NCBI GenBank assembly: GCA_964433595.1
Contig: CAYSRF010000002.1
Span: 1 to 37,865, forward strand
Source of the DNA: Candidatus Hadarchaeota archaeon
Lineage (GTDB): Archaea; Hadarchaeota; Hadarchaeia; Hadarchaeales; Hadarchaeaceae
Direction of reading: 5' to 3'
DNA length: 37,865 nt
A program made the translations under genes and the position numbers. The notes beneath the pieces are model-generated. The model was given only the letters and a program-made list of their open reading frames with translations, was not told the origin of the DNA and ran no database searches. Positions 4,023 to 28,222 of this stretch are shown in pieces. Within the stretch, counting starts at the first letter, position 1; the number at the start of each line of letters is the position of its first letter.

Positions 4023-5318
4023 ATGTTATTGATGAAAGAAAAGAAATTATTCCCCAGAGATCTCTTGCCCAAGCTCGAAAAATGGATTGACCGGAGGGAA
4101 GCCTTCGCGATCAAGGGACCGAGGCAATCGGGCAAGACCACGCTTTTAAGGATCCTAGAGGAAAAGCTGGCCGACAAGGGAAACGTGGTCTTTCTGAATT
4201 TTGAGGACCCTGACGTTCTCGAGGCTTTTGAAGCGAACCCGAAGCGGTACGTCGAGAGCTTCATGCCCAAGCGGGGGAAGCACTATTTCTTGATGGACGA
4301 ATATCATTACGTCAAGGATCCGGGGAAGAAACTCAAACTGTTGTACGATAGCTTCGAGAACGCGAAGTTCGTGGTCACGGGTAGCTCTTCCTTAGAGCTG
4401 AGTGGTGCGATGGCGAAATTCTTGGTCGGAAGGGTGTTCTTCTTCGAGCTACTTCCCCTCAGCTTCCACGAATTTTTGGTTGCAAAGGACAAACGGTTGG
4501 GTAAGCTTTACGAGCGAAAGAACAGGGTGATCAAGGAGTTTCTGCTCCAAGGGAGGAGGGCAGGGCTGGAAGAGGATATCTTCATCGGGGAGTTCCAACC
4601 CTTCTTCCACGAGTACCTAACATTCGGCGGGTACCCGGCGGTGGTAAAGGCTGGAGACATCGAGACCAAGCGGATGATCCTGAAGGGCATCTACGACACC
4701 TACGTATCCAAAGACGTGATCGAATTCCTGAGATTCACGGATGCGTTCAAGTACCGGGATGCCGTCAGGGCCTTGGCGGCGTCGGTCGGGGGTTTGATAA
4801 GCTACCAGGGGATTGGCTCGGCCATCCAGAGCTACTTCAAGGAGCTGAAGAGGATCGTATCCATCTTATCTGAAACCTACGTGATAGCGCTGGTTCGGCC
4901 GTTCTCAAGGAATCCCAGGACCGAGCTCAGGAAGACCCCAAAGGTTTACTTTTTCGATCTGGGGTTGAGGAACCACGTGATAGACAACTTCAACCCGATC
5001 GAGAAGCGAACCGATGCGGGAGCGGTGGTCGAGAACCTAGTTTTGCTGGGCTTGATGCGCACTTTTCCGGGTGAGCCGATAAACTACTGGCGGACGATAG
5101 CGAAAGCCGAAGTCGACTTCGTGCTCAGGTTGGGCGGGGAGCTTGTCCCGGTCGAGGTCAAGTATCAAATTTTCAAAAGACCGAAGATATCGAGGAGTTT
5201 GCGGAGCTTCATCAACACCTACAAACCCGAACGCGTCTTGGTGGCCACCCGTGACTTTTGGGCGAGGGCCAAGCTAGGGGGGGCTGAAGTGTTGTTTGCG
5301 CCCGCTTGCTACCTGTAG
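4023..5318 (+). CDS. AAA-family ATPase with DUF4143-type C-terminal domain (COG1373-like)
   Basis: Walker A GPRQSGKTTLLR and Walker B YFLMDEYHYV. The C-terminal AEVDFVLR...VPVEVKYQ is a nuclease-like module typical of AAA_14/DUF4143 proteins. Confidence 0.7.
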   Translation: MLLMKEKKLFPRDLLPKLEKWIDRREAFAIKGPRQSGKTTLLRILEEKLADKGNVVFLNFEDPDVLEAFEANPKRYVESFMPKRGKHYFLMDEYHYVKDPGKKLKLLYDSFENAKFVVTGSSSLELSGAMAKFLVGRVFFFELLPLSFHEFLVAKDKRLGKLYERKNRVIKEFLLQGRRAGLEEDIFIGEFQPFFHEYLTFGGYPAVVKAGDIETKRMILKGIYDTYVSKDVIEFLRFTDAFKYRDAVRALAASVGGLISYQGIGSAIQSYFKELKRIVSILSETYVIALVRPFSRNPRTELRKTPKVYFFDLGLRNHVIDNFNPIEKRTDAGAVVENLVLLGLMRTFPGEPINYWRTIAKAEVDFVLRLGGELVPVEVKYQIFKRPKISRSLRSFINTYKPERVLVATRDFWARAKLGGAEVLFAPACYL

Positions 5319-5738: not shown

Positions 5739-7445
5739 TTAAGGCTTGGTTGCTATTTCCTCTTGAGTTGGTCTGCTTTTCTCTGGTATCGTCTGGATAA
5801 TCGCCCCTCGGAATAATTTCATCTGTTTTGCATACTCCAAAATATCGAGCTTCCCTCTTGTTGTTAATTCTAGTCTTGGGAAGATTTCTACATCAAGATC
5901 TGTCTCATCTTTCACCTTATTTACAATATCCTTGTATAACCCCAGTCCTATGAAGAAGATTTTATCGTGTCTCCTCAATTTACCTTTCAATTCTTCTACA
6001 AACTTTGGGACATCACTTTCCTGCATCTTGTAATCATAAGTTGGTATTCGCTTGCTCCAATCGATAAACCCGAATTTGGCCGAGAGGATCCCTATTTCTA
6101 CAGGTAAGTCAAAGATATTGTTCCAAAATACCTTGAAGACAGGTGAAGGCAGATACCTTTGATAAGCAGACAATAGTCCCGATGATTCATTTTTCTTCCC
6201 CGTGCAGCTCGTGAAGACGAAAATTCGAGGTGAAATTTCTCTGAGTTTTCTATAAAAAATGAATGTATTGTGAAAACCTCTCCGCCTGTTTCTGTTGTTT
6301 CCTCTGAAAATGATCACCTCAACTCCCACATTTTTGCAAATGGTACATGAACATTTTTTCCATGGCATATCAGTCAAAGTTTCCCTGTAATATTTTTCCA
6401 ATTCAGGTCTTTCGCCAATGGTTCTGTCGTATTCTAAAATTGTTTTCATTACTTCGGCAATTGGAATCTTACCTTGGTCGTATAGCCTCATGGACTCCAT
6501 TGCCTTTCTTTCCAGTTTCGCTAATTCTTCTGGATTTGAAATACTCTTAACACGATGACTTCTTTCTGTTTGCGGTATCCTAATCGCACTGTAACCCCTT
6601 CCGTCGACCGCATAATAATTATTTTGAGCACTTAGCCAAGCTCTTCTTAGAAATGATGCCGAATCAAAACTTGTTACTCCATATTTCATGAAATCTGGGA
6701 TTATTTGAGGTCTAGCGGCCCCAAAGACATGGATATCTATTTTACGTTTAGTTTCATCCATCTGTTTCTTAACTTCTAACCAAACCCCTTTAATTACATT
6801 AATAAGAGTTTTGGTCTCCTCTTTCTTACCTTCCAATCCAGTGGGGGCCCGAGCTAAACCCCCCAGGCCGATATAATCATAACCCACTTTCAACAATTCT
6901 CTAACAGCTCTCCTGTAGGAGTCTACATCCCAACCTTGAGCAACGCCAATTATTCTTATTGATTGCAAATACTCGTCTTTTGAATGCCATAATTCAAACA
7001 TTTCTTGTGCATTTTCAAGAGTTATTTTCCATCGTTTTTCATATTGGTCTTTATGCATAGGAACTATTAAATGATCAATTGAAACTCCGTAATTAAAACC
7101 GCATTTGAGGTAATAATCCAGAGTTTCAGAGGGTTTGAAGGGAGGTTCATCTTTATCTATGTACCCCCAGGCTCCACAGTCCCCCATAATCTCGAATGTT
7201 TTTGGTAAACGTAAGAATTGATGAATGCCTTCTCTTAGAATTTGTTGGTATTTTGCTTTATTTTCCACGATCTTCATTCTTGAAACTAGGACACCATCGA
7301 TTGGAACATTTTCCAGTCCAAAAATATTCCATACATAAACATCATTTTGTAAAGGATTTTCGTAATGAGTTTCTGAATGGTTGTCGGTGATGAAATCATA
7401 TTCGGGGTCTACACGATCGTCCCATTCTGGAATGAAGTACTTCAT
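5739..7445 (-). CDS. dpdA: TGT-superfamily transglycosylase, DpdA-like (putative DNA 7-deazaguanine transglycosylase), with an extra C-terminal domain of about 165 aa
   Basis: N-terminus MKYFIPEWDDRVDPEYDF. TIM-barrel motifs GDCGAWGY, IGLGGLARA, HVFGAARP and FDSASFLRR. Zinc site CSCTICKN-x22-H. No PUA tail. The C-terminal part (FVFTSCTGKK...ILSAKFGFI...IPTYDYKM) is reminiscent of a DUF6884-type domain, with low certainty. Confidence 0.65.
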   Translation of the reverse strand: MKYFIPEWDDRVDPEYDFITDNHSETHYENPLQNDVYVWNIFGLENVPIDGVLVSRMKIVENKAKYQQILREGIHQFLRLPKTFEIMGDCGAWGYIDKDEPPFKPSETLDYYLKCGFNYGVSIDHLIVPMHKDQYEKRWKITLENAQEMFELWHSKDEYLQSIRIIGVAQGWDVDSYRRAVRELLKVGYDYIGLGGLARAPTGLEGKKEETKTLINVIKGVWLEVKKQMDETKRKIDIHVFGAARPQIIPDFMKYGVTSFDSASFLRRAWLSAQNNYYAVDGRGYSAIRIPQTERSHRVKSISNPEELAKLERKAMESMRLYDQGKIPIAEVMKTILEYDRTIGERPELEKYYRETLTDMPWKKCSCTICKNVGVEVIIFRGNNRNRRRGFHNTFIFYRKLREISPRIFVFTSCTGKKNESSGLLSAYQRYLPSPVFKVFWNNIFDLPVEIGILSAKFGFIDWSKRIPTYDYKMQESDVPKFVEELKGKLRRHDKIFFIGLGLYKDIVNKVKDETDLDVEIFPRLELTTRGKLDILEYAKQMKLFRGAIIQTIPEKSRPTQEEIATKP

Positions 7446-7489: not shown

Positions 7490-7639
7490 TTATATTGTTG
7501 CATTCCTCTTTTCTCTGAAGTATTCGGCTAAAATCGATCTGATGGTTTCTTGAAGCGTATCTAGTCTTCTTCTTTTCTGCTCCAACTCTAAAGCTCGGTG
7601 CATAGATCCCGGGATAGACATAGTAAATTTCCTTGCCAT
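7490..7639 (-). CDS. Ribbon-helix-helix (CopG/Arc/MetJ-type) small DNA-binding protein, 49 aa (not in the ORF track)
   Basis: My own translation gives MARKFTMSIPGSMHRALELEQKRRRLDTLQETIRSILAEYFREKRNATI. An AAGGAG sits upstream. The beta-strand plus two-helix pattern is present. It is about 80 percent identical to the ORF at 11777..11917. It replaces the 72-aa track ORF, which is in another frame. Confidence 0.65.
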   Translation of the reverse strand: MARKFTMSIPGSMHRALELEQKRRRLDTLQETIRSILAEYFREKRNATI

Positions 7640-7704
7640 ACATCATTCTCCTTCTTTGGAATTCTTTGGAAACCAAAAGATATATAAATATACCATTCTA
7701 TAGA

Positions 7705-7726
7705 CTTCTTTAGACTTCTAAAGAAG
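7705..7726. promoter_or_regulatory. Perfect 10-bp inverted repeat CTTCTTTAGA-ct-TCTAAAGAAG in the divergent promoter region; candidate RHH operator
   Basis: Read directly from the sequence. It lies between the A/T-rich TATA-like tatataaatata (7681-7691) and ATG 7742. The core TCTTTAGA/TCTAAAGA recurs at 11923-11982 and 10973-10986. Confidence 0.5.
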
Positions 7727-7741: not shown

Positions 7742-8806
7742 ATGATAATGGAAGGTTCCTTTCCGGTGGTTTACCCTAGCACGAAGGACATCATACTCTC
7801 ACAGTTAAACCTACAAAAGATAATGACAAGTGTAGCTTTTATAAACTCTGAGCAGAAAAAGCAGAACGTTCATGAAATCATAAATTTCAACAAATTAATC
7901 TTTTTAGATTGCGGAATTTTTCAAAGAGGTTCTTATAAAAAATACGACACATGGGGCAAGATATGCAAATACCGTGAAAAGCTTATTGATTGGTACGCCC
8001 ATCTCAAACCAGACCTTGCAAGTTCTCTAGATTTGCCTAGTCTACACATTTTCAAAGATAAAATTAGAAAGGAGAGATTAACTTGGTCGATTGAGAATTA
8101 CAAACTAATGAAAACTCAACTTGATGTTCCTTTAGTTCTCGGGATCAGCGTTTTTTCTATAGAGGATATTTATCTAACTAAAAACTATATTCAAAAGATT
8201 CTTGGGGAAGAACCTGTTCTCATAGGACTAGGTGGACTGGTTCCTCTAATGAGATCCTGTAAAACTCATCCCGCGCTTGGGAAATTGATCCTGAAAATAG
8301 TATACCAAACGCGAAAGAATTTTCCTCACTCTTTCATTCATGTTTATGGTCTGGGAGACCATCAATGGTACCCACTCACTCGGTTAGTTGGGGCATCAAG
8401 CAGTGATTACGCAGGATATTACTACATTACTGGTAGGGGGGGAATACTCCTACCGAATTCCTCGGAAAAGTATGTTCTTAGAATGATTAAGCAAAAAACT
8501 AAAAAAGGTTTTGTTTACTATACTCGTTCTAATAACAAAATATTTTCAATAAAGGAACTAAGGCAACTCTATGGATGTCGATGCCCTTCGTGTAAAGATT
8601 CGGATCCTACTTTACTAGAATTCGATCGCAAGAAACGTCTAGTCCATAACTTGTATACGATATTGTCCGAAACTAGGATTGTTGATGAGTATTGTAACCA
8701 AAATGATATTGAAAGATTAAAAAAATATGTGAAAGATCGATTCACTCATGGAAAGAATGAGATGAAAGCTTACGTGAAATACGCTCTAGAACTTGTGGAA
8801 AAGTGA
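7742..8806 (+). CDS. Second, highly divergent TGT-superfamily (DpdA-like) protein
   Basis: Motifs FLDCGIFQ (compare TGT DSGGFQ), IGLGGLVPL, HVYGLGDHQ and SSSDYAGYY, plus zinc site CRCPSCKD-x17-H. It has no PUA domain and no C-terminal extension. Confidence 0.6.
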   Translation: MIMEGSFPVVYPSTKDIILSQLNLQKIMTSVAFINSEQKKQNVHEIINFNKLIFLDCGIFQRGSYKKYDTWGKICKYREKLIDWYAHLKPDLASSLDLPSLHIFKDKIRKERLTWSIENYKLMKTQLDVPLVLGISVFSIEDIYLTKNYIQKILGEEPVLIGLGGLVPLMRSCKTHPALGKLILKIVYQTRKNFPHSFIHVYGLGDHQWYPLTRLVGASSSDYAGYYYITGRGGILLPNSSEKYVLRMIKQKTKKGFVYYTRSNNKIFSIKELRQLYGCRCPSCKDSDPTLLEFDRKKRLVHNLYTILSETRIVDEYCNQNDIERLKKYVKDRFTHGKNEMKAYVKYALELVEK

Positions 8807-8886: not shown

Positions 8887-10791
8887 CTAACCCGGCGCAC
8901 CCGTTGATTCGATCTTCCTAATGAAATCGTCTAAATCGCTTAGATTCAGAAAAACGTATATTCCAGTTTTAGCAAGGTGGAAAAGGTCTTCCTCGCGCCA
9001 ATGTCCATCTGGCACGAAAAGAATCATGTAATCATCTTTATATTTGGTTTGGATACGTCCATTACTAGAATACACATCAAAAAGGGTTCCAAACGCCCTT
9101 CCAGACTCCTCAGGGCTTCGATGTTGGACTGTGCTACCCAGTGCGAATCTGGACTTTAGTAAGATCGTCATTTGATTACCCTTGATGCACCAGGGGTAGT
9201 TAACAGTACCTTGGTTATGGAGCAGACGTTCACCATGGTTAGGGTAAGTTTGTAGTTGATCTCTCCGAAGTTTAATCAATTGCTCGAATAGTGTCTTAAT
9301 CACATAATTCCTTTCATGTCTATATCTAGATACTATAGAGTTAATAACGTAGTCAATTGGGCTAACTTTTGGATTATTCAACTCTTGCCAAACTCGTTCC
9401 CCAACACTTCTTTTTGACGTAACCAAGCGGGAGTAGATTGTACCGTTACGAACCAACCGATCCCTCTCTTTCAACAATAAATTAGTCAATCTTGTCATTT
9501 CTTGTCTCGAGAAATCTCGAACATAGAAGTTGACTTCCATCCGGTTGGTTCGGATCACGGAACGGATACTGCTTTCCTTCAACCCGAAAACGTCAAGAAC
9601 GATTTTCCGCCAAATTCGCCTCTTCTCGATATCGGGAGTATTCCAAAATCGTTGAAGAGTATCGTTAAAATTTTTTGAAAATAAATCTTTGAGGTGGGCA
9701 CTATACTTCTCCCATTGCCGGAGGACATTGAAGTTATCCAGCAATTCTCCTCTCCTTTCACTTAATATTGTCGCTGCTGAAGTCTCTATCTGCTCTTCCG
9801 AAACCCCTAATTTGGAGAAATCGATAAACAAAGAAGAAACAATCATTTTTCTCCCTATCCGAAATTTCGCGTCACGGCTTCTCTTGATGAGATTCAAAGA
9901 GGTGATAAAATCAACTGCGTTCTTCACTTCCTCAACAGGTAAAGAAAGCGCATTCACGATCTCATCTAATTTACGGGTTCCATGAGAAATTAGGTACTTC
10001 AAAACCTTCTTTTCAGTATTTTCCAGTATAGCATTAAGGATAATGGCATATCTGAGTGAGGGTCGCGAACTTGGAACACCATATGTTTTGATCTGTTTTT
10101 CTAACAACTTCTGAGGAGAGATCCATCTAGGTCGTCTCGTTTTGAGATAGGAGTCTCGGCAAGAAGACCAAAAATACTCCAGCTCTGATCTTTTGAGTCT
10201 TGTGAGATTTTTGAAGTACACAATCAAATTGTTATAAGCCCACCTAACATTCTTCAAATCAGGCCCTGGTCTTTCGAACCTGCTCTGAATATACTTGTAA
10301 AATGGCCCCTCAGGTCTTTCCTCTTTCCATTTATTATGAAGATATTTCAAATCTTCCTCTAAAATGAAAAAGTCATCTTTTTTTTGGTATTGTGGGTAAA
10401 AAACTGAATCAAAAAGAACCTCCTTTCCGGAAAGTAACCATTTTGCCCAGTATTTCTTATTCCCGAAAACAATGTTCACTGCGATGCATTTTGGTCCCAA
10501 GATGCGGGAGAGTTTGATTTCTTTAAGTTCATCAAAAGTCTCCCATGCGGGATACTGTGAATTACGAGTTGGCGAATCTATCTCCTCCCCTGTTGTGCAG
10601 AAAATCGCATAACGTACATTTTTGTGTGAAAGTAAGATATCAACATGACATCTCAGAGAGGAGGAACTGAACTGGCGAGCGATGAACTTCGGATCATAGA
10701 TACTACTCAAAGCAGCATAGGTTAGTTGCTCTAATCGCCAACCATGATCGGCTGCAAGACCACGTCCTGGATGCCAAGTTTCTGCCGACAT
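8887..10791 (-). CDS. Hypothetical 634-aa protein with a central winged-helix-like segment; no recognisable family
   Basis: Long ORF in the AT-rich block. GGGAG precedes the ATG and TTTAAATA lies about 40 nt upstream. LKYLISHGTRKLDEIVNALSLPVEEVKNAVDFITSLNLIKR looks like a wHTH. The terminal regions have possible nuclease-like acidic motifs (HVDILLS..., ...DYMILFVPDGHWREED), which are unproven. Confidence 0.55.
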   Translation of the reverse strand: MSAETWHPGRGLAADHGWRLEQLTYAALSSIYDPKFIARQFSSSSLRCHVDILLSHKNVRYAIFCTTGEEIDSPTRNSQYPAWETFDELKEIKLSRILGPKCIAVNIVFGNKKYWAKWLLSGKEVLFDSVFYPQYQKKDDFFILEEDLKYLHNKWKEERPEGPFYKYIQSRFERPGPDLKNVRWAYNNLIVYFKNLTRLKRSELEYFWSSCRDSYLKTRRPRWISPQKLLEKQIKTYGVPSSRPSLRYAIILNAILENTEKKVLKYLISHGTRKLDEIVNALSLPVEEVKNAVDFITSLNLIKRSRDAKFRIGRKMIVSSLFIDFSKLGVSEEQIETSAATILSERRGELLDNFNVLRQWEKYSAHLKDLFSKNFNDTLQRFWNTPDIEKRRIWRKIVLDVFGLKESSIRSVIRTNRMEVNFYVRDFSRQEMTRLTNLLLKERDRLVRNGTIYSRLVTSKRSVGERVWQELNNPKVSPIDYVINSIVSRYRHERNYVIKTLFEQLIKLRRDQLQTYPNHGERLLHNQGTVNYPWCIKGNQMTILLKSRFALGSTVQHRSPEESGRAFGTLFDVYSSNGRIQTKYKDDYMILFVPDGHWREEDLFHLAKTGIYVFLNLSDLDDFIRKIESTGAPG

Positions 10792-10980
10792 TTTTCTCCC
10801 TATTGAATTTGTTTACATTTTTGGATTAAAAACTATTTAAATCATTTTACGTTAATTTTGCCGCGAAAATAAGCTGACCCATGGAGAATGGTGCTATAGG
10901 TCCCCGAAGGGCCTAAGAAAGCTGTTAGAGAAACACCCAAAGTTACTAACACGAAAAATTTAGGGGACATGACTTTAGAT

Positions 10981-11775
10981 TTAGAATTTAAGATTCCGTT
11001 GAATAAACGACTCAACTTGACGGTTCTTGGTTTGAAAATTTTTCTTTTCTGTATCAAAATCATCTATTATGCACACCTTTTCCCTCGCAAACTCCGATTC
11101 TATTACATGGGCAAAAGGCAAATTCAAATTAGATAGAATTAATATCGCGGTTGGTCTAAAAATTTTGAGATAATTTTTTATTTGCTCTTTTAACCTCCTT
11201 TCAGGCTTCCCAAGTGTTGGGTCAACGATCATTCTTGGGTTGATCACCTTTCCCTTGCCTAGCGGTTCTGGGCCGAAATCATTCACTATTGGGATATATG
11301 CTTGGATTTTTTCGAAGTCATCTACAAGTTCAAGTCTCCAATACATATTCACTGTTTCTCTAAAGGGCGAAAGACGTTTAATCTTCACATAGATTTGTCC
11401 TAAAACAATAGAGATGTCTGGCCTAAGACGGCTTCGCAGAGGTGGATAACCATCGTAGTAAATAGATAAGGTCAGATCTGTTCTATGTCTTAGAACTATT
11501 GATGGGGACAACCAATTTGCTAACTGAAGGATCGGGATTCTCGATATGCGGATGCCACGCGTCATTGAGAATTTTGGGGCGATGACGTGATTTGAGTCAA
11601 TGTATTTTGGTAGTGGTTTGAAATCAAGTTTTGTTAGATCTTGGAAGATACAATTAAAGACAAACTCTTCATATTTTCTAAACTTAGATCTTCTTTCTCT
11701 TGAGCTAAATGAAATCCCATAACTCGACAGAGGATAACCGTTCGAAGAACCACCATCTTTCATTGATTGATACAT
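10981..11775 (-). CDS. Hypothetical protein of about 264 aa, no recognisable family
   Basis: I prefer ATG 11775, which is 1 nt after the stop of the RHH gene, over the track GTG at 11835, which lies inside the RHH gene. RPDISIV and MIVDPTLGKPERRLKEQIK are weak PD-(D/E)xK-like hints only. Confidence 0.5.
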   Translation of the reverse strand: MYQSMKDGGSSNGYPLSSYGISFSSRERRSKFRKYEEFVFNCIFQDLTKLDFKPLPKYIDSNHVIAPKFSMTRGIRISRIPILQLANWLSPSIVLRHRTDLTLSIYYDGYPPLRSRLRPDISIVLGQIYVKIKRLSPFRETVNMYWRLELVDDFEKIQAYIPIVNDFGPEPLGKGKVINPRMIVDPTLGKPERRLKEQIKNYLKIFRPTAILILSNLNLPFAHVIESEFAREKVCIIDDFDTEKKNFQTKNRQVESFIQRNLKF

Positions 11776-11776
11776 T

Positions 11777-11917
11777 CTACCCCATTTTTTCTCTGAAATA
11801 TTCAGCAAGAAGTGATCGAATGGTCTGTTGGACACTATCGAGTCGTCTTCTCTTTTTTTCTTCTTCTAAAGCCCTAAGCATAGATTCTGGAAGGGACATA
11901 GTGAATTTTCTTGCCAT
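11777..11917 (-). CDS. Ribbon-helix-helix small DNA-binding protein, 46 aa, paralog of 7490..7639 (not in the ORF track)
   Basis: My own translation gives MARKFTMSLPESMLRALEEEKKRRRLDSVQQTIRSLLAEYFREKMG. Its stop TAG (11779-11777) is followed after 1 nt by the ATG of the next gene. Confidence 0.65.
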   Translation of the reverse strand: MARKFTMSLPESMLRALEEEKKRRRLDSVQQTIRSLLAEYFREKMG

Positions 11918-11922
11918 AGCTA

Positions 11923-11982
11923 TCTAAAGAAATCTAAAGAGGGGAGAACTTAAAGAAGGGTTGTTCTTTAGAATGCTAAAGA
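11923..11982. promoter_or_regulatory. Cluster of TCTAAAGA/TCTTTAGA sites upstream of the second RHH gene; candidate operator array
   Basis: Tandem tctaaaga at 11923-11930 and 11933-11940. Inverted repeat TCTTTAG-aatg-CTAAAGA at 11965-11982. A related cttaaagaag at 11949-11958. Confidence 0.5.
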
Positions 11983-12053: not shown

Positions 12054-12524
12054 TTACCTTATCTTTTTCTCAAAACATGCAAACTGACCGGGAGACTCTT
12101 CAACCTTGACAATTATCTTTTTAATATTTTTATGTTCACTCAAACTTTCGGCGAGTTCGTTCGCGATTAGCCTAGCAATCTCCTCAACTGTAGTGTTAAC
12201 GATAGGCAACCAAACAACATCTTCGGACGGAAATCCAAACTCCTTACCATGAAAATTTATGAGAGTTTTGCCCTCGATAGATCCCTCTCTTCTTAACTCG
12301 TTTTTCTCTGGCAACAATAGCCTGTGATCATATCGATCGCAGATCTCATCAACTTTTTTCTTCAACTTGATGAAATCAACAACAAGTCCTCTTTCATCAG
12401 GCTCACCCTCAATGCTGACCCCAACTTTCCAGTTATGGCCATGCAAATGCTCACATTTCTCATGCCCGATAATTAAATGTGTGGCCGAAAAACCGATGTT
12501 TTCCTTTTCTAGCCCGATCCTCAA
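12054..12524 (-). CDS. queD: 6-carboxy-5,6,7,8-tetrahydropterin synthase
   Basis: PTPS-family motifs SATHLIIGHEKCEHLHGHNWKV. TTG start overlaps the upstream stop (TTGA). Confidence 0.8.
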   Translation of the reverse strand: MRIGLEKENIGFSATHLIIGHEKCEHLHGHNWKVGVSIEGEPDERGLVVDFIKLKKKVDEICDRYDHRLLLPEKNELRREGSIEGKTLINFHGKEFGFPSEDVVWLPIVNTTVEEIARLIANELAESLSEHKNIKKIIVKVEESPGQFACFEKKIR

Positions 12525-13450
12525 CTGTTCACCTCCAGTTCCACCTTTAAATCAGAGACAAACCCTTCCCTTTCCGCAAAAGCATCATGTTGATGTATGC
12601 TTTCAAGGTTGAGCTGTTTTGCGGTCACATAGGCATCGCCAGGGAGATCCGGATACCTGTTCAGTAACCCTCTGATCATCTCCCTCACGGTTTCCTCAAC
12701 GAATTTTGGCTTAAGATAAGCCCTAGTTATGACCTCAACTTCATCCTCACGTTTCAGGATCTCGTAAAGTTGTTCGCTCATGGAACCCTCAACAATTTTG
12801 ATCAAGTCTTCGGCCTCAACTCGATAACCAAGCGAGAGTTCGACCATTAAAGTGCCCGTACCTCGCTGACTATGTGAAGCAATCGGTATTCTTTGTAGGA
12901 TTTCGTCGATTTTCGCCTTATCTATCCCAGATTTCTCTAATTCCTCCCTAACCCTTGATTCCATAACTTCTTGAGCACAAGGGCAGGTTGTCATCCCCTG
13001 TACTTCGACCCCGATCGTCCTCTTCATTTTCGTTTTTCCATCAATTTTCTCAGCTTTTGCCCCGGCCAAAAGTTTGTATAAAGTCTGGGTTTTTGTCTTG
13101 AGTTTCGGGGTTTCCCTAATTACCGGATAGTCAGCCCTAACCCTGACCTCGGCTTTTTTTGCATTTGGATGAACTCTAAGTAATTTTAATGCAATCTCCG
13201 AGCACATGTCTTCAGTATCCGAAATCTGACCTGTTGCGACTTCTTCGATTGCCTCGTTTATTACTTGAGTGCTTCTCGACATGTGAATTCCAGTCTGTCT
13301 AGGGTCAAGATCAACATAGGCCTCGATTTCGGTATTAAGGAAGTTCTCTTGTTCGCCCCTCTTTCTATAAATCTGCTTTCTGACGTTTGTAACTCCCACC
13401 CTGCTAAGCCTTATTGGAAATGTTGATTTTTTGTCCTGAAACTCCATCAT
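12521..13450 (-). CDS. folE2: GTP cyclohydrolase IB family (FolE2/MptA type)
   Basis: Motifs MTTCPCAQE and [10 protein letters not shown], with a length typical of COG1469 enzymes. ATGA overlap with queE. Confidence 0.75.
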
Positions 13451-14217
13451 AACACATCCATCAACTTATGAACTTGGGGAATCACCATGACGTTTTCAGG
13501 TTCGAAGACCTTTCCAGCTATTTCGGCAAGTCTGAAAAGCTCCTCTGTTGATGGCCGTTCCTTCACGGTTCCTGTGGGGGTAACGGGTTGGATCACGAAT
13601 CTGATTTTCAGGTCCGACAAGTCATTACATACTTTTCTGAACTCGTCGGGGTTGGTATTGGGGAGGATTATCGTCTTTACTATTGTATCAAGTCCGTGTT
13701 TAACTGAAGTTTTGATGCATCCTATCTCATTCTCATAGAGTTTTTCCCAACCGTTTTCTGAGGTGGCGTTATGATTTTTTGGAAGCTTCACATCGATTGC
13801 AGCGTAATCAAAATGATCGACGACTTTTTCAAATGTGGATTTTAATGCCCCATTTGTCTCAAGGTAATTTCTCCAACCTTGCACGCGACACCCTTTGGCA
13901 AGCGATCCAAGGAAATCCCCCGAAAGAAGAGGTTCGCCACCTGTGAATGATATGCTATGAAGATCAGGAGTAAAAAGCAATTTAACTGATTTTATAATGT
14001 CATTTACATCTATCGGATTTTTCACTGTCTTGAAGTTTTTTGATCCAGCTTTGGTTTCTATCCTACAAACATCGGGCCTCATTTCCTTAAACTGGAGAGT
14101 GTCACAATAATTGCAATTTAAGTTGCAACCAGCGATCCTCACAAATATCTGCCTTCGGCCGACATAGGGTCCTTCGCCTTGAAACGAACTGAAGATCTCG
14201 CCTACATAACCTTTCAT
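13447..14217 (-). CDS. queE: 7-carboxy-7-deazaguanine synthase (radical SAM)
   Basis: N-terminus [34 protein letters not shown] is the QueE signature with the radical-SAM cysteine cluster. Confidence 0.85.
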
Positions 14218-14219
14218 GG

Positions 14220-14900
14220 TTAGACCTCGTACTTGATTGGATCCTTAACCCCAACTTCCCTGAATCCCCTTTTCCTATGCTGACAACTTTCACAGACTCC
14301 GCAATGTTTTTCTTTACCAAAATAGCAACTCCAGGTCAATTCAAATGGAGCATTGACTTCTATTCCCTTCTTAATGATGCCCACTTTGTTCAAGTTAATT
14401 AAAGGGGCCTCGATCTTTGGTTTAGGTTCTGTGAAGGAAGCTGTTCCCCGCTCTAAAATAAGGTTAAATGCTTCCACGAAGGGAGGTCTATTATCCGGAT
14501 ACCCCAATCCCTCCTCTGCGTTAAATCCAACGAATATTTTTTCAGCTCTCAGACTTTCAGCATAAGCTCCCGCTAAAGACAACAAGACGGTGTTTCTCAT
14601 AGGAACCCATGTTGGAGGGGTTTCCTTTGCCCTTAACGAAACTTCTTTTTTAACCGGAATCTCTAAGCTTTCATCGGTCAAACTTGAATGCCCCAATTCT
14701 TTCAAAAATGTTAAATCGACGAACTTCCTTTCTTTGGCCCCTAATCTCTCGGCTATTTTCTTAACAGCTTCTATTTCCCTTTTCTCAGCTTTATGTCCAT
14801 AATTAGCGTGAAGAATGTAGATTTCGTATCCCTGCTTTTTCGCGATCGTTGTTGCGACGGTTGAATCAAGTCCTCCTGAAAGAACGCAAACAATTTTCAT
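14220..14900 (-). CDS. queC: 7-cyano-7-deazaguanine (preQ0) synthase
   Basis: PP-loop VLSGGLDST and C-terminal zinc site [14 protein letters not shown]. Confidence 0.85.
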
Positions 14901-15223
14901 TTCAACCTTCCCCCTAGAAGATCTTCGTATACTTCCCTCATGTAGAAGACGCTGGCCGCAGTTTCCTCATCTAATCCACATCTACAGGCCCTGCACTTCG
15001 GGCAGATCAACCATCCACATTTTGGACAGACATCAGTTTTGGTGACATCGAATTTCTCCCCACATTTGAAACAATAGACCTCGGGTTTTGTGAAAAATTT
15101 CAAAAAGTTCTCAATTGCTCTTGAGAGAGGTATGCGCCTTTCATCTGATGTTTTCTTTGCTTCTTCAACCACATCCTCGTCTACTGTAATAGTCAACTTC
15201 GTTTTCTTATTCGACGTAGTCAT
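14897..15223 (-). CDS. Ribbon-helix-helix domain fused to a double CxxC zinc ribbon; first gene of the que operon (putative regulator)
   Basis: KLTITVDEDVVEEAKKTSDERRIPLSRAIENFLKFF is an RHH. It is followed by CFKCGEKF...CPKCGWLICPKCRACRC. ATGA overlap with queC. Confidence 0.6.
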   Translation of the reverse strand: MTTSNKKTKLTITVDEDVVEEAKKTSDERRIPLSRAIENFLKFFTKPEVYCFKCGEKFDVTKTDVCPKCGWLICPKCRACRCGLDEETAASVFYMREVYEDLLGGRLK

Positions 15224-15510: not shown

Positions 15511-15608
15511 TTTTGGACACCATTCTAAGACTCTTGTTAACTTTTATTGCCATCTCACCTAAGATCTAAATAAAGATAAAAGAGATTCTCTTGCAAGAGT
15601 TTGGTAAT

Positions 15609-16535
15609 ATGGGATCCGAGGAAGAAGTTCAAACTCGAAAAACGCAAATTGAAACACACAAAGAGAATCTTCGTAGAGCGATCGAAAAAGCAGAGGCAGC
15701 TAAAGAAGCTCTAAGAGAGGGGATAGCTAACAGGAAAAGGGTATGTGGGGATTTAGATGGGATAAAAGAATTGTCCTCTCAAGAACTTTCTGCGTTAGAA
15801 ATCATCGAACCTTTGGTTGCAAAAATTGATGACGATACCTGGCAAAGTTACGAAGGAATAGCATGTAGTGGTGCAGATTTATCTGGAACATTAAGTGCTT
15901 TCCATCGAGATATTCAAACTGAAGAAGCTGAATTCAGTGAAATTGCTACCGTATCTGGAGCTTCCATTACAACCGCTACTACTAGTGCAGTAAGTGTGGT
16001 CGATCTTTTTTCAGATTTCGATCTCCGTGTTAAAGAAATAAAGATACAAGATACTATCGTGAAGAATATAGAATTTATCCAGAACCGATTAAGCGAAATA
16101 GATCCGTCAATTGCTCAAGGAATCAGAATTCTTTTCCAAGATTGGAGTAGTTTGCCAAATTTTGAGAAATCAAAAAGGTTACTTGATTTAAGATCGTTGT
16201 TATTCTATCAATTTTTTGATCGATTTGCTCCAGAACACAGTTATTCAAAATGTCAATGGTACCGAGATGCAAAAGAAGGAACAATCTGTAGAAAAATGCG
16301 TTTTGCCCAGGTTAAGTTCTTTATTCAGGATTGCAGGGACGATTCAGAAATTAAGGAGTCGGTTCTCAAATCAATTGATTCTACGGCTAAGGATATGTCC
16401 CGCAATTTTGATGATATGTCGAATTATGGCAAACATGGAACATCAGGATCTGTGGCGGAGAGCGTATTTAGAGGCACAATCTCTTCTTTTGCAAACGTTC
16501 TGAGATTAAGAGACCAACTACGGGAGGTTTCCTAA
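15609..16535 (+). CDS. Hypothetical protein with an N-terminal coiled-coil-like region
   Basis: I prefer ATG 15609. An A/T-rich box taaataaagataaaag lies 25-40 nt upstream, and the palindrome CTCTTGCAAGAG (15588-15599) lies between them. No family recognised. Confidence 0.45.
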   Translation: MGSEEEVQTRKTQIETHKENLRRAIEKAEAAKEALREGIANRKRVCGDLDGIKELSSQELSALEIIEPLVAKIDDDTWQSYEGIACSGADLSGTLSAFHRDIQTEEAEFSEIATVSGASITTATTSAVSVVDLFSDFDLRVKEIKIQDTIVKNIEFIQNRLSEIDPSIAQGIRILFQDWSSLPNFEKSKRLLDLRSLLFYQFFDRFAPEHSYSKCQWYRDAKEGTICRKMRFAQVKFFIQDCRDDSEIKESVLKSIDSTAKDMSRNFDDMSNYGKHGTSGSVAESVFRGTISSFANVLRLRDQLREVS

Positions 16536-23633: not shown

Positions 23634-26282
23634 TTAGACTTGTCTAGAGTTATTGTATTTTTCTAGAAACGAATTTGCAACTTCTTTCGGGGAAGTTTTC
23701 CTTGCGTCGAGGTAACCAATTGATGACTGCAACCCCGGCACCTCTGAATCATCGAATATGACTGGCAAAATATAGTCGCCAAATTGTTTTATTTGTCTGG
23801 CTATAGCACTTTTCCTCTCATGCGAGGGCCAAGCTTTAGAAACATAATCTTTAGAAATAAACATGATACAGTAATCGGAGTGATCGTAGTAAACTTTTTG
23901 GAGATATTCTGCGAGGTCAGTACCCCATAACTGCGATTGGTAAAATTGATCATACCAGCACTTTATGCCCTTAGTTTGGAGAATATGGGCAACTTCATCA
24001 ACATATTCTCTTTGCTCACTGGCATAAGACAAAGCCACATCGTATTTATTATCTTTCGTCACTTTTTTTTTATTTTGATTTATCGGGATTGCGACGAAGG
24101 GTCCGTAGAATTTGTCAATAATGCTTTCAAATTCATTTTTAAGGCGGTCGCAAATTCTCCTATCCCTGCCTCCAATATAATAGACACATTTAACGTGCAT
24201 TCCTTTAATAGCATCACCAAATATTTGAAAATTGTAGTAGATACAAGCGTTTTCTTCCCAAGAAAAAAGACCGTCTTTCTGTGATAAGTCAATACAACCT
24301 AGATTTAACTCTGAAATAGCCCTTATCAAACGGCCTATTTCTATTTCTTTATAGGGAAAAATCTTTTCCTCAAAATCTTTAAGAAATTTTTTATATTCTT
24401 TTGGAACATCTATTCCTTCTTCGCGAAGTTTTTCAGGAAATATTCTCAAATCACGATTTTTTATGGCAATGTCGTAATTTAGGTAGACTGCATCCAAGAT
24501 TGGAATATAAGGATGACGTTTATATTCTTTCAATAATTCATTGTACGGGACAATACCTTTCTTCCCCCCTACAAAAATTGGGATATTTGTCAACAACCTA
24601 TTGTATTCAACATCGTTTATGATAACTAAATTACTGGCCTCTGGGTAGTACCCAATTATGCCCTGATTACTAAAATCCCGCAACAAGAACTTAAGGTGCT
24701 TAGCTGGCATGTCATACCCTAGGAAACTGTGATGGTATTTTTCAAGTTCTTCAAATTTAATCGCTTTTCGATCTTCTTCTTGAAGTTTGTTTATTAGTTT
24801 AACTAGATTATCAGAAAATGAAGACTTGATCACAATTTTGGTGTTTTCCCAATAAATTTTTTCTAATAATTGATCTTTTAATTCGTCTATTCCAGTTCCA
24901 TCTGAAGGGCAAACTTTTAACCGAATATCAATTTTCCCACTATCAAGAAGGGCTTTTACTGTAGGTTCATCAATTTCATTAATTTCCTGATCTATGTAAG
25001 TTTGAACAAAGAGTATCTTTATTTTTGGATTTAGATTTTTTTCGAGACCTTTCAAGGTTTCTATGGCTTTATCAAAAGAATGTTTATCATTTTGTTGGAA
25101 CAAAATAAGTATAACATCAGAGTCGGCTAAAAATGGTAAGAAGGTGCCTAACACTGTTTCTTGCCCACCATAATCATGGAAGATAATTCGCTTTTGCAAA
25201 GGACCTCCATCGATAATCCAATTCCAAATTCTTTTACCAAATGTTGATTTAACGGCTCCCGCTGACCCTGTTGTGATAAAATTACATAAAGTACTTTTGC
25301 CTACACCTGTATGTCCGATTAAACTGATTTTAGCGTACTTATATTTTATAAGTTTAGGATCGGGTTTAACTTTTTCTCTTTCAAATGATAGTAATCCATC
25401 TTTTTTTAAAACAAGAATTGTATTTTCTTTTGAGAATATTTTTATAATCCCCCCAATCTCATTAGATTCTATTTGTTGAGAATCTACATCAAACTGAATC
25501 AATTCAGTATCTGTGCCGGCAAAAACAGTTTTACCATCATTCGTTATATGTATACAATTTCCCCTGCTCTTAGCATTAGCTATTTCCAACACTGTTTGCC
25601 ATTTCTTAGCACCATTTTCAATTTTCTTTTCGAATAAGTGAATGTGACCAGCCATATCAATTGATGCAAATGAAGCATCTTGAGTCCATGATATATCTTC
25701 TACTGTTTGATTAATGTTTAGCTGTTGTAATTCTTCGTAATGATCTTTTTGATATTCCCAAATAAGAATTTTTCCCGTATAATCTCCTGAAGCCATGAGT
25801 TGCACATTTAGACCTCCCAAAGCGAAAATACTGTTCCGATGTCCCGAAATTGAATATTTTTCCCATTGTCCATGTTCACTTTTACGTATTCCCGTCATGA
25901 CGCCGTATGTTGATGTCGCGACCAAATTTTTTTCCATTGGCCAAACTGTTCTCCAAACACGGGAACTAACGCTATAAGTTGCTTCTTGAAGAAATTCGGG
26001 ATTCTTTGGATTTTCACAATTTAAAATGAAAAGATCACCATTATGGCTACCTACAAGAATTCTTCCATTGCCGCAGGAGGAAATTGTCTCGATTTTTGAT
26101 GAGCATCTGTACAATATTTTTGGTTCGTCATTTTTTGTTTCCCACTTGACAACCAAACCGTTTTCATGTCCAGTAATAAGTAAGTCCATATCAGCTAGAA
26201 AGACACCAGTAGTAGCATTTGGAAAATCTTTTGGGAAAGAAATAATTTGGTTATATTTATTGGGCATTTTTTCTCCATGCAT
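23634..26282 (-). CDS. WD40-like beta-propeller / Roc-type small GTPase / helical (COR-like) region / C-terminal TIR domain protein
   Basis: WD-like repeats (GHENGLVVKW, GSHNGDLFIL, SGDYTGKILIWE). GTPase G1 GHTGVGKST and G3 HDYGGQE. TIR: YDVALSYASEQREYVDEVAHILQTKGIKCWYD...YCIMFISKDYVSKAWPSHERKSA, with a conserved Glu. Confidence 0.65.
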   Translation of the reverse strand: MHGEKMPNKYNQIISFPKDFPNATTGVFLADMDLLITGHENGLVVKWETKNDEPKILYRCSSKIETISSCGNGRILVGSHNGDLFILNCENPKNPEFLQEATYSVSSRVWRTVWPMEKNLVATSTYGVMTGIRKSEHGQWEKYSISGHRNSIFALGGLNVQLMASGDYTGKILIWEYQKDHYEELQQLNINQTVEDISWTQDASFASIDMAGHIHLFEKKIENGAKKWQTVLEIANAKSRGNCIHITNDGKTVFAGTDTELIQFDVDSQQIESNEIGGIIKIFSKENTILVLKKDGLLSFEREKVKPDPKLIKYKYAKISLIGHTGVGKSTLCNFITTGSAGAVKSTFGKRIWNWIIDGGPLQKRIIFHDYGGQETVLGTFLPFLADSDVILILFQQNDKHSFDKAIETLKGLEKNLNPKIKILFVQTYIDQEINEIDEPTVKALLDSGKIDIRLKVCPSDGTGIDELKDQLLEKIYWENTKIVIKSSFSDNLVKLINKLQEEDRKAIKFEELEKYHHSFLGYDMPAKHLKFLLRDFSNQGIIGYYPEASNLVIINDVEYNRLLTNIPIFVGGKKGIVPYNELLKEYKRHPYIPILDAVYLNYDIAIKNRDLRIFPEKLREEGIDVPKEYKKFLKDFEEKIFPYKEIEIGRLIRAISELNLGCIDLSQKDGLFSWEENACIYYNFQIFGDAIKGMHVKCVYYIGGRDRRICDRLKNEFESIIDKFYGPFVAIPINQNKKKVTKDNKYDVALSYASEQREYVDEVAHILQTKGIKCWYDQFYQSQLWGTDLAEYLQKVYYDHSDYCIMFISKDYVSKAWPSHERKSAIARQIKQFGDYILPVIFDDSEVPGLQSSIGYLDARKTSPKEVANSFLEKYNNSRQV

Positions 26283-27820: not shown

Positions 27821-28222
27821 TTTCTCAACTATCATTATTCAGAATTGCAGGCTATAACCATTTTGGGCGATAAAAAATATGCCGGCGAATCGACTGTAAC
27901 TCATCTTCTGTTTTAAGGCAGCATTTAGCTAAGCAGGCTACCACCCGCCTCCAGCAGGCGTTCATAGGCGGCAATTTGCCCTTGCATCTCGCGGAATGGC
28001 CGTTTCATCCTGCTTGACCCGACCTCAGCGTTCCCGCATCATGGCGCGAACCAGCAGGTGTCGTTTCTGTGCCATTGTCTGACTTTACAACCAGGCTCTC
28101 ACGAGCCCGCGAACCTGCTCGATGGATGAAGTTTCCTCAGGCTTTCGCCCGGGAGCTGCCCACCGACTCGCCAGCATTATAATTTTTAGCTCTCTAATCT
28201 TAAGAAGGTAGCTGGTGGGTGG

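Follow-up and report, generated by a model that had tools for sequence, protein, structure and literature searches.

The closest described relative of the locus reported here is the Dpd system of S. Montevideo and other bacteria (dpdA–K), in which the TGT-family protein DpdA marks DNA with preQ0 (Thiaville 2016; PMC10164549). A DpdC-type domain and the preQ0 genes share one island with DpdA in that system, and DNA lacking the mark is restricted. A DpdA, a putative DpdC-type domain and preQ0 genes likewise occur together in a 37,865-nucleotide stretch of contig CAYSRF010000002.1 of a Candidatus Hadarchaeota archaeon (hereafter, the window), and the logic of restricting unmarked DNA would be common to both. 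The host is taken to be an archaeon because the window carries an archaeal RNase P RNA (27885–28171, −, 196.8 bits). In the present study, we focused on two adjacent open reading frames (ORFs) of this locus, ORF264 and ORF634, named after the lengths of their products in amino acids (aa). We consider it reasonably probable that their products are the small and large subunits, respectively, of an ATP-independent, type II-like restriction endonuclease of an undescribed family, which would be blocked by deazaguanine in DNA.

The window differs from a Dpd island in several respects. Among the window ORFs scanned, including ORF634, ORF264 and their neighbours, no PADLOC match was found to DpdB, a ParB/DndB-like ATPase, or to DpdD–K, which comprise helicases and a PLD nuclease, and the locus is thus not a canonical Dpd system. 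DpdC was also without a PADLOC match among the ORFs scanned, and a putative DpdC-type domain, DUF6884, is fused to DpdA. Furthermore, the window encodes a second TGT paralog, TGT354, and some related loci encode a third; the host is archaeal; and restriction would fall to a small, ATP-independent module of two genes whose products lack homology to Dpd proteins. The initial annotation had described the products of ORF264 and ORF634 as belonging to no family, and no family-level match to either was indeed obtained in Pfam, NCBIfam, PADLOC, PHROGs or PDB sequences, the winged helix–turn–helix (wHTH) of ORF634 being the only part that matched. It had also placed the ribbon–helix–helix (RHH) gene RHH2, ORF264 and ORF634, co-directional and in that order, between the TGT genes and the preQ0 operon, and the gene map agrees in coordinates, order and position (Table 1).

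The gene neighbourhood provides the key evidence for a restriction function. The contigs of ten family members were read, yielding about 12 locus types, all of them metagenomic. Eight are TGT-type (the window, L001, L002, L003, L013, L016, L018 and L020), with ORF634 homologs of 28–58% identity together with P0014 and P0016 at about 20–24%. In all eight, an ortholog of TGT354 adjoins the ORF634 homolog (phmmer, 1e-96 to 1e-152). Six of these types (the window, L001, L002, L003, L013 and L016) have the two genes in convergent orientation, whereas the genes are co-directional with a 13-bp gap in L018 and divergent in L020; the convergent or co-directional arrangement is typical of restriction–modification (R-M) systems. 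The DpdA–DUF6884 fusion is present in every related TGT-type locus, making eight of eight with the window. Genes for preQ0 synthesis, or a QueT/DUF5591 salvage set, were found in most of the related TGT-type loci that extend far enough, and the genes of the window's preQ0 operon recur in L001, L002 and L013.

The other four locus types (L017/L024–27, L021, L022 and L023) are methyltransferase-type and hold the family members P0013, P0015, P0019 and P0021, with 17–21% identity. An ORF264 homolog lies directly upstream of the ORF634-like gene in L017, L022, L023 and L024–27 (hmmsearch, 8e-17 to 7e-9), and the short contig L021 contains only a C-terminal fragment of an ORF264-like gene (hmmsearch, 2e-3). 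Eco57I-type N6-adenine methyltransferases adjoin the pair in all four, joined by an N6_N4 methyltransferase in L024–27 and L022. Gene ends in these loci overlap by 4–52 nt, and the operon of L024–27 encodes, in order, proteins of 257 aa and 575 aa and a methyltransferase of 774 aa. No TGT genes were seen on the methyltransferase-type contigs, and no preQ0 genes in these loci. A nuclease candidate tightly linked to a DNA-modifying gene, as in type II R-M systems, was therefore present at 8/8 TGT and 4/4 Eco57I-type loci. Between the two sets of loci, this conserved pair has swapped the DNA-modification gene that accompanies it, a TGT in one set and a methyltransferase in the other. Because the neighbour is exchanged between two DNA-modifying chemistries, we read the pair as the restriction half and the neighbour as the modification half of one system. 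Homologs unlinked to TGT/que genes had been named in the initial annotation as evidence that would count against a role of this kind. The distant subfamily does lack that linkage, yet its members are linked to methyltransferases, and the linkage to another DNA-modification enzyme thus strengthens the restriction reading rather than refuting it.

On the modification side, TGT354 gave weak matches to TGT/ArcTGT families. Its residues D56, D97 and D222 are invariant among TGT354 and its orthologs and align with three conserved Asp residues in the TGT domain of the window DpdA. By motif position, we equate them with Asp95, Asp130 and Asp256 of S. Montevideo DpdA, which serve as general acid/base, in base recognition and as nucleophile, respectively (PMC10164549). 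TGT354 also keeps the zinc site CxCxxC...H. As the three Asp residues and the zinc site are kept, TGT354 is probably an active transglycosylase. The window DpdA was recognized by PADLOC (9e-109) and by the NCBIfam DpdA equivalog (1e-117; 393 bits against a cut-off of 200). DUF6884 was detected at aa 411–478 of this protein with an E-value of 1.3e-3, which is below the Pfam cut-off, and the motifs CxxxK (CTGKK) and LSAxxG (LSAKFG) are visible; the DpdA orthologs in L001, L002, L013 and L016 gave unmarked PF21818 matches. DUF6884 is the domain reported for DpdC (10.1101/2025.02.24.639861) and is related to YaaA/DUF328 (PMC11701544), and DpdC itself has been described as DUF328 (PMC12839542). Since DpdA is fused to this putative DpdC-type domain, DNA may be marked with dADG, the amide, and not with dPreQ0.

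The proteins of the pair have features consistent with nuclease subunits. The AlphaFold2 model of ORF634, built with a 17-sequence alignment, was confident, with a predicted local distance difference test (pLDDT) score of 87.5 and a predicted template-modelling (pTM) score of 0.85. In the N-terminal domain, DSSP assigned the elements H12–29, E37–41, E50–56, E59–67, H79–94 and E103–109, and the element order in the model is alpha, three beta, alpha, beta, alpha, beta. Residues conserved in this domain include E21, D51, T66, E84/E88, K/R112, W118 and D128. E21 in helix 1 and D51 at the start of strand 2 are invariant wherever this region is present, T66 and E84 are found in 16 of the 17 sequences, and K/R112 in all 17. 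The N-terminal domain thus shows Vsr/PD-(D/E)xK topology with conserved acidic residues at the expected positions, sharing with that fold the element order, the Glu of helix 1 and the Asp at the start of strand 2. Distant members have V-T-H in strand 3; in one of them, P0014, a sub-threshold Pfam Vsr match falls on these very strands. We take the V-T-(H) of this strand to resemble the F-T-H motif of Vsr.

The central winged-helix segment that had been noticed in ORF634 was supported by matches to Pfam HTH_9 (E = 8.6e-5, aa 249–302) and NCBIfam Sta1/Lrs14 (about 1e-4), by the helices and hairpin modelled at aa 246–312, and by MarR/ArsR-type Foldseek matches. This wHTH is present in most TGT-linked relatives, P0014 lacking it, and in none of the methyltransferase-linked ones. 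The middle of ORF634 is helical in the model. The C-terminal alpha/beta domain has the conserved residues K546, (H/R)557, R558, E561, D595, G596, W598 and G610, of which R558, E561, G596, W598 and G610 are invariant, and gave no match in PDB or Pfam sequence searches. A likeness of its motif '...DG.W....L.RL...GW.V' to Vsr/DUF559-like proteins was considered, but was backed by no tool and set aside.

The model of ORF264 was also confident (pLDDT 88.4, pTM 0.87), with helices at 30–49 and 192–205 and strands at 93–107, 121–125, 182–187 and 210–215. Down to about 22% identity, E36, R118-P119-D120, G168-P169, K190 and Q198 are invariant and position 185 is always D/E, giving an E...PD...(D/E)...K series reminiscent of the PD-(D/E)xK fold; a 60-residue beta insert splits the motifs of this putative catalytic signature. 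The residues behind the PD-(D/E)xK hints of the initial annotation (R118-P119-D120, D185, K190 and Q198) are among the few that are invariant or conservatively replaced at this distance; Foldseek gave no significant match to a nuclease fold. Loci without an ORF264 homolog have another small, nuclease-like protein next to the ORF634 homolog. In L013, L016 and L020 it belongs to a family of about 160 aa with a conserved D...E-x-Q, and in L018 the small protein in that place has a canonical motif and an Hjc match (Table 1). A further ORF of L018, 337 aa long, has an RPD...IIEK motif. The Pfam and PADLOC scans detected no ATPase or helicase domain in either ORF264 or ORF634.

Heteromeric type IIT/IIS enzymes such as BbvCI, Bpu10I, BspD6I, BtsI and BsrDI consist of two different subunits, often a large and a small one. 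They are ATP-independent, cut one strand per subunit and are often accompanied by two modification enzymes. The present systems are reminiscent of them in the proposed large and small subunits and in that the sister loci have two methyltransferases and the window has two TGT paralogs. They differ in that no sequence similarity was found, the sole structural match being an insignificant one of ORF264 to BbvCI (E = 0.06), and in that protection would be achieved by base exchange instead of a methyl group. It may be speculated that the recognition site is asymmetric, each strand being modified by a separate enzyme and cut by a separate nuclease subunit, as hinted at by the two methyltransferases of the sister systems and the two, in some loci three, TGT paralogs. 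A scenario of homologous subunits as in BbvCI/BspD6I was unsupported, because profile–profile comparisons gave no relation.

Several results weigh against the proposed endonuclease. In Foldseek searches of the PDB with both models, and of BFVD with the ORF264 model, no significant match was found. The best PDB matches had E-values of 2.3e-3 (ORF634) and 8.5e-3 (ORF264), with query-normalized template-modelling scores of at most 0.24, and the weak matches of ORF264 mix restriction enzymes (EcoT38I, BbvCI, MspJI and Can2) with RNase H-like integrases and terminases. The motifs are non-canonical: that of ORF264 reads (D/E)-x-(S/T)-x-x-K as opposed to (D/E)-x-K, the N-terminal domain of ORF634 has no ExK in strand 3, and the window's subfamily is without the Vsr-type His. 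The window ORF634 did not match Pfam Vsr, and P0014, the only member to do so, remained below the family threshold (E = 1e-3; 19.4 bits, the cut-off being 27) in a region that corresponds to window aa 32–65. Profile–profile comparison among the ORF634 N-terminal domain, its C-terminal domain, the ORF264 family and the approximately 160-aa family indicated no mutual relation. Furthermore, the number of locus types is small; five of the 14 clusters of the family (P0017, P0018, P0020, P0022 and P0023) lie outside the survey of contexts; and the TGT-type loci were all found by querying with the ORF264/ORF634 pair, so that linkage was scored in one direction. As the structure searches gave no significant match, we infer nuclease chemistry of ORF264 and ORF634 from motifs, topology and context.

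S. Montevideo DpdA needs DpdB for preQ0 insertion (PMC10164549), and no DpdB homolog was recognized by PADLOC among the window ORFs scanned. The pair might accordingly be a modification accessory, a DNA-binding and target-presenting stand-in for DpdB that serves the TGTs and, in the sister loci, the methyltransferases, and the wHTH and large helical region of ORF634 as well as its tight linkage to TGT354 are compatible with such a role. We consider this unlikely. Neither protein has an ATPase or ParB-like domain; Eco57I-type methyltransferases themselves contain a domain for target recognition (M_Eco57I_C) and are not known to require such helpers; and the acidic/Lys constellations, together with the Hjc-like replacement of the small partner, suit catalysis better than scaffolding. 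It is quite unlikely, too, that the pair serves an unrelated purpose, such as mobile-element function, DNA repair or regulation, and merely hitch-hikes with modification genes. The viral label of L025, the terminase-like gene near the pair in L022 and the models' want of a firm fold assignment would fit this explanation, but neither protein showed similarity to integrases, transposases or capsid proteins, IMG/VR yielded no relatives, and DNA-modification neighbours are consistent across very divergent members.

The surroundings of the pair bear on a further explanation, according to which it is a type IV-like, modification-dependent nuclease directed against otherwise modified foreign DNA and stands beside modification genes through the clustering of defence genes. 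The window's defence island encodes a PDC-S01 ATPase, a protein like pPIWI-associated nucleases and a WD40–Roc–TIR protein, GmrSD/HNH type IV-like genes occur in related loci, and ORF264 had a weak Foldseek match to MspJI. However, the linkage is gene to gene, with stop-to-stop overlaps with a methyltransferase gene or TGT354, the 13-bp junction of L018 and the operon of L024–27; adjacency was seen in every locus type recovered, across two modification chemistries; and no domain that reads modified bases, such as SRA, EVE or YTH, was detected. This explanation is therefore improbable. The alternative that the initial annotation had offered, a DpdC analogue further derivatizing preQ0 in DNA, is suggested by the position of the pair, with the TGT genes on one side and the preQ0 operon on the other, and by the lack of a PADLOC match to canonical DpdC, but is highly improbable and also unnecessary, because the DUF6884 on DpdA would already supply a DpdC-type activity (10.1101/2025.02.24.639861; PMC11701544), neither protein matched DUF328 (YaaA-like) or DUF6884 in Pfam, NCBIfam, PADLOC or Foldseek searches, nor nitrile hydratase, amidotransferase or other cofactor-binding folds in Pfam, NCBIfam or Foldseek searches, and the distant pairs lie in methyltransferase loci without preQ0 genes. 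The other function it had offered, discrimination of modified from unmodified DNA by restriction, is backed by the context of TGT/DpdA or methyltransferase genes and by the conserved nuclease-like motifs.

Full-length homologs of 43–58% identity were found for ORF634 and ORF264 each, and at the sequence level both are confirmed as real, conserved genes, as is RHH2. ORF634 and ORF264 define, as judged from these searches, two new protein families that Pfam, NCBIfam, PADLOC and PHROGs do not contain. When 1.84 billion representative proteins were searched exhaustively with an HMMER profile, no more than 14 clusters of the ORF634 family were recovered. Relatives of ORF634 and TGT354 were found neither in GTDB species genomes (two scans) nor in IMG/VR, and a word-index search with the 17-sequence profile returned four close homologs and nothing further. 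Family-library scans with the 17 family members, and with the C-terminal domain alone up to an E-value of 10, gave scattered sub-threshold matches only, and PDB sequence searches with the profiles of ORF634, ORF264 and the C-terminal domain gave nothing meaningful. The ORF634 family is very rare and known from metagenomes only.

The regulators of the locus appear to tie its two halves together. RHH2 gave weak matches to RHH families (MetJ, 3.6e-3; BrnA; NikR) and is 73% identical in nucleotides to 7509–7640, that is, to RHH1, so that the two are duplicated paralogs. RHH homologs are also found upstream of DpdA or ORF634-like genes in L013 and L016. Palindromes of the same putative operator sequence lie upstream of RHH2 and in the divergent region between RHH1 and TGT354 (Table 1), and the pattern TCTTTAGA-N2-TCTAAAGA has seven matches in the window compared with 0.83 expected, all of them in the two RHH upstream regions. 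The duplication of the RHH gene and the same palindrome upstream of both units suggest that DpdA, TGT354 and ORF264/ORF634 are co-regulated through RHH proteins and a shared putative operator. In C-protein R-M systems, a small DNA-binding regulator similarly heads the restriction operon; here, the same putative operator precedes the modification genes as well, which by analogy suggests timed or balanced expression. The regulator here is, however, a duplicated ribbon–helix–helix protein and not the helix–turn–helix C-protein. The stop codon of RHH2 lies 1 nt ahead of the ATG of ORF264. Between ORF264 and ORF634, the window has a gap of 189 bp (10792–10980) with a TATA-like TTTAAATA, compared with 7–27 bp in other loci; ORF634 may have gained a promoter of its own in the window. 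A scan for bacterial promoters and terminators was uninformative, the host being archaeal.

Considering these results, we propose the following scenario. ORF634 may recognize DNA through its central wHTH and helical region and contribute a Vsr-like or PD-(D/E)xK-like N-terminal domain, and ORF264 may add another nuclease-like active site, which would allow each of the two DNA strands to be cut by a different subunit. The associated pair would cleave DNA at sites without 7-deazaguanine. Self DNA would be guarded not by methylation but by the exchange of guanine for 7-deazaguanine in or near the site, TGT354 and/or DpdA–DUF6884 inserting preQ0 supplied by the neighbouring QueD/FolE2/QueE/QueC operon, possibly followed by conversion to the amide ADG by the DUF6884 domain. 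The two paralogous RHH proteins would bind the palindrome common to both units and jointly control modification and restriction. We give an even chance to the full proposal, in which a compact, ATP-independent two-subunit endonuclease of a new protein family is kept off self DNA by 7-deazaguanine exchange and the same module is combined with either methyltransferases or DNA transglycosylases, which would constitute a previously unrecognized kind of R-M system.

Table 1. Features of the locus and alternative small partners in related loci (positions refer to the window unless a locus is named)
Feature	Position	Strand	Description
DpdA–DUF6884	5739–7445	−	568 aa; C-terminal DUF6884 (putative DpdC-type) domain
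RHH1	about 7490–7639	−	49 aa; heads the DpdA gene; read from sequence
Palindrome TCTTTAGAAGTCTAAAGA	7707–7724		RHH1–TGT354 divergent region; putative operator, same sequence as at RHH2
TGT354	7742–8806	+	354 aa, TGT family; convergent with ORF634; proposed cognate modification enzyme
ORF634	8887–10791	−	ATG start, 634 aa; proposed large subunit
ORF634 C-terminal alpha/beta domain (aa 479–630)	8902–9357	−	From conserved residues and model
ORF634 central wHTH (aa 246–312)	9856–10056	−	From model, Pfam, NCBIfam and Foldseek
ORF634 N-terminal domain (aa 12–131)	10399–10758	−	Vsr-like or PD-(D/E)xK-like; from DSSP and conservation table
ORF264	10981–11775	−	ATG-started 264-aa form of a 284-aa GTG ORF; proposed small (catalytic) subunit
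RHH2	11777–11917	−	46 aa; ribbon–helix–helix; heads the ORF264/ORF634 unit
Second, degenerate site of the RHH2 palindrome	11923–11940		Upstream of RHH2
Palindrome TCTTTAGAATGCTAAAGA	11965–11982		Upstream of RHH2; putative RHH operator
preQ0 supply operon	12054–15223	−	QueD, FolE2, QueE, QueC and RHH–zinc ribbon
QueD	12054–12524	−	preQ0 operon
FolE2	12521–13450	−	preQ0 operon
QueE	13447–14217	−	preQ0 operon
QueC	14220–14900	−	preQ0 operon
RHH–zinc ribbon (DUF6364)	14897–15223	−	preQ0 operon
About 160-aa small partner	L013 4931–5449; L016 3534–4019; L020 7831–8304		D...E-x-Q family
161-aa small partner	L018 7645–8130		Canonical PD...ECK; Pfam Hjc E = 2.5e-4; abuts ORF634 homolog

Related loci contain further genes. 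A third TGT paralog of 390–420 aa is encoded in L001 (8634–9836), L013 (11497–12669), L016 (8710–9894) and L011 (6149–7336) and is absent from the window; it resembles the DpdA TGT domain more closely (1e-64 to 1e-74). DUF2400, MazG, Prok-JAB and GmrSD_N/HNH genes, and a DUF87 (HerA/FtsK-like) ATPase with a partner of about 600 aa, recur as accessories in L001, L002, L013, L016 and L020; none of this accessory set was found in the window. These genes may constitute additional layers within one and the same defence island. The loci L003–L009 (for example, L004 2202–4825) have no preQ0 synthesis genes but encode a DUF6364 RHH protein, DUF5591, QueT, a stand-alone DUF6884 and a JAB protein, and look like a preQ0-salvage version of the system. 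In L025 (ENA/NCBI record DNA_vOTU_4822), the methyltransferase-linked pair lies on a contig deposited as a viral operational taxonomic unit, and in L022 (14607–15824) a terminase-like gene lies near such a pair. The R-M-type module may travel on archaeal viruses or proviruses.

In the window, the modification and restriction region lies inside a stretch of about 24 kb (2000–26300) with a guanine-plus-cytosine content of 33–45%, flanked by DNA of 50–57%, which is consistent with a horizontally acquired island. Other genes of this low-GC island encode an AAA_14/DUF4143 ATPase (4023–5318, +; PADLOC PDC-S01, 8e-82) and an 882-aa WD40–Roc GTPase–TIR protein (23634–26282, −). Just past the preQ0 operon, a 314-aa protein (15591–16535, +) has a C-terminal region like that of pPIWI-associated nucleases, with matches to Pfam pP_pnuc_1 (1.3e-7) and PADLOC Aga_Nuclease (9e-5); an Argonaute gene was not seen in the window. 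Two genes at the island edge encode an Nmad2 (nucleotide-modification-associated domain 2) protein (1985–2494, +) and a protein with ParB_N and HTH_ParB domains (879–1733, +). The latter was considered as a DpdB, but it did not match the PADLOC DpdB models and this role is unsupported.

Deazaguanine modification of DNA has been described in phages and in the Dpd islands of bacteria. Restriction by Dpd depends on a large machine of many proteins that is poorly understood. A 2016 review listed as an open question which endonuclease is blocked by dADG or dPreQ0 (PMC5699537). In our literature searches, we found neither a type II-like endonuclease described as linked to deazaguanine modification nor a Dpd-like R-M system described from an archaeal chromosome. 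If the proposed function is correct, ORF264/ORF634 would be the first candidate for the sequence-specific, deazaguanine-inhibited endonuclease asked for in that review. An ATP-independent enzyme encoded by two genes could be reconstituted far more easily than the Dpd machine and might serve as a reagent for reading 7-deazaguanine in DNA. Furthermore, the swap between methyltransferase and TGT would be a clear case in which the self mark is exchanged in modular fashion while the restriction module stays the same, and deazaguanine-based R-M would be extended to archaeal chromosomes.

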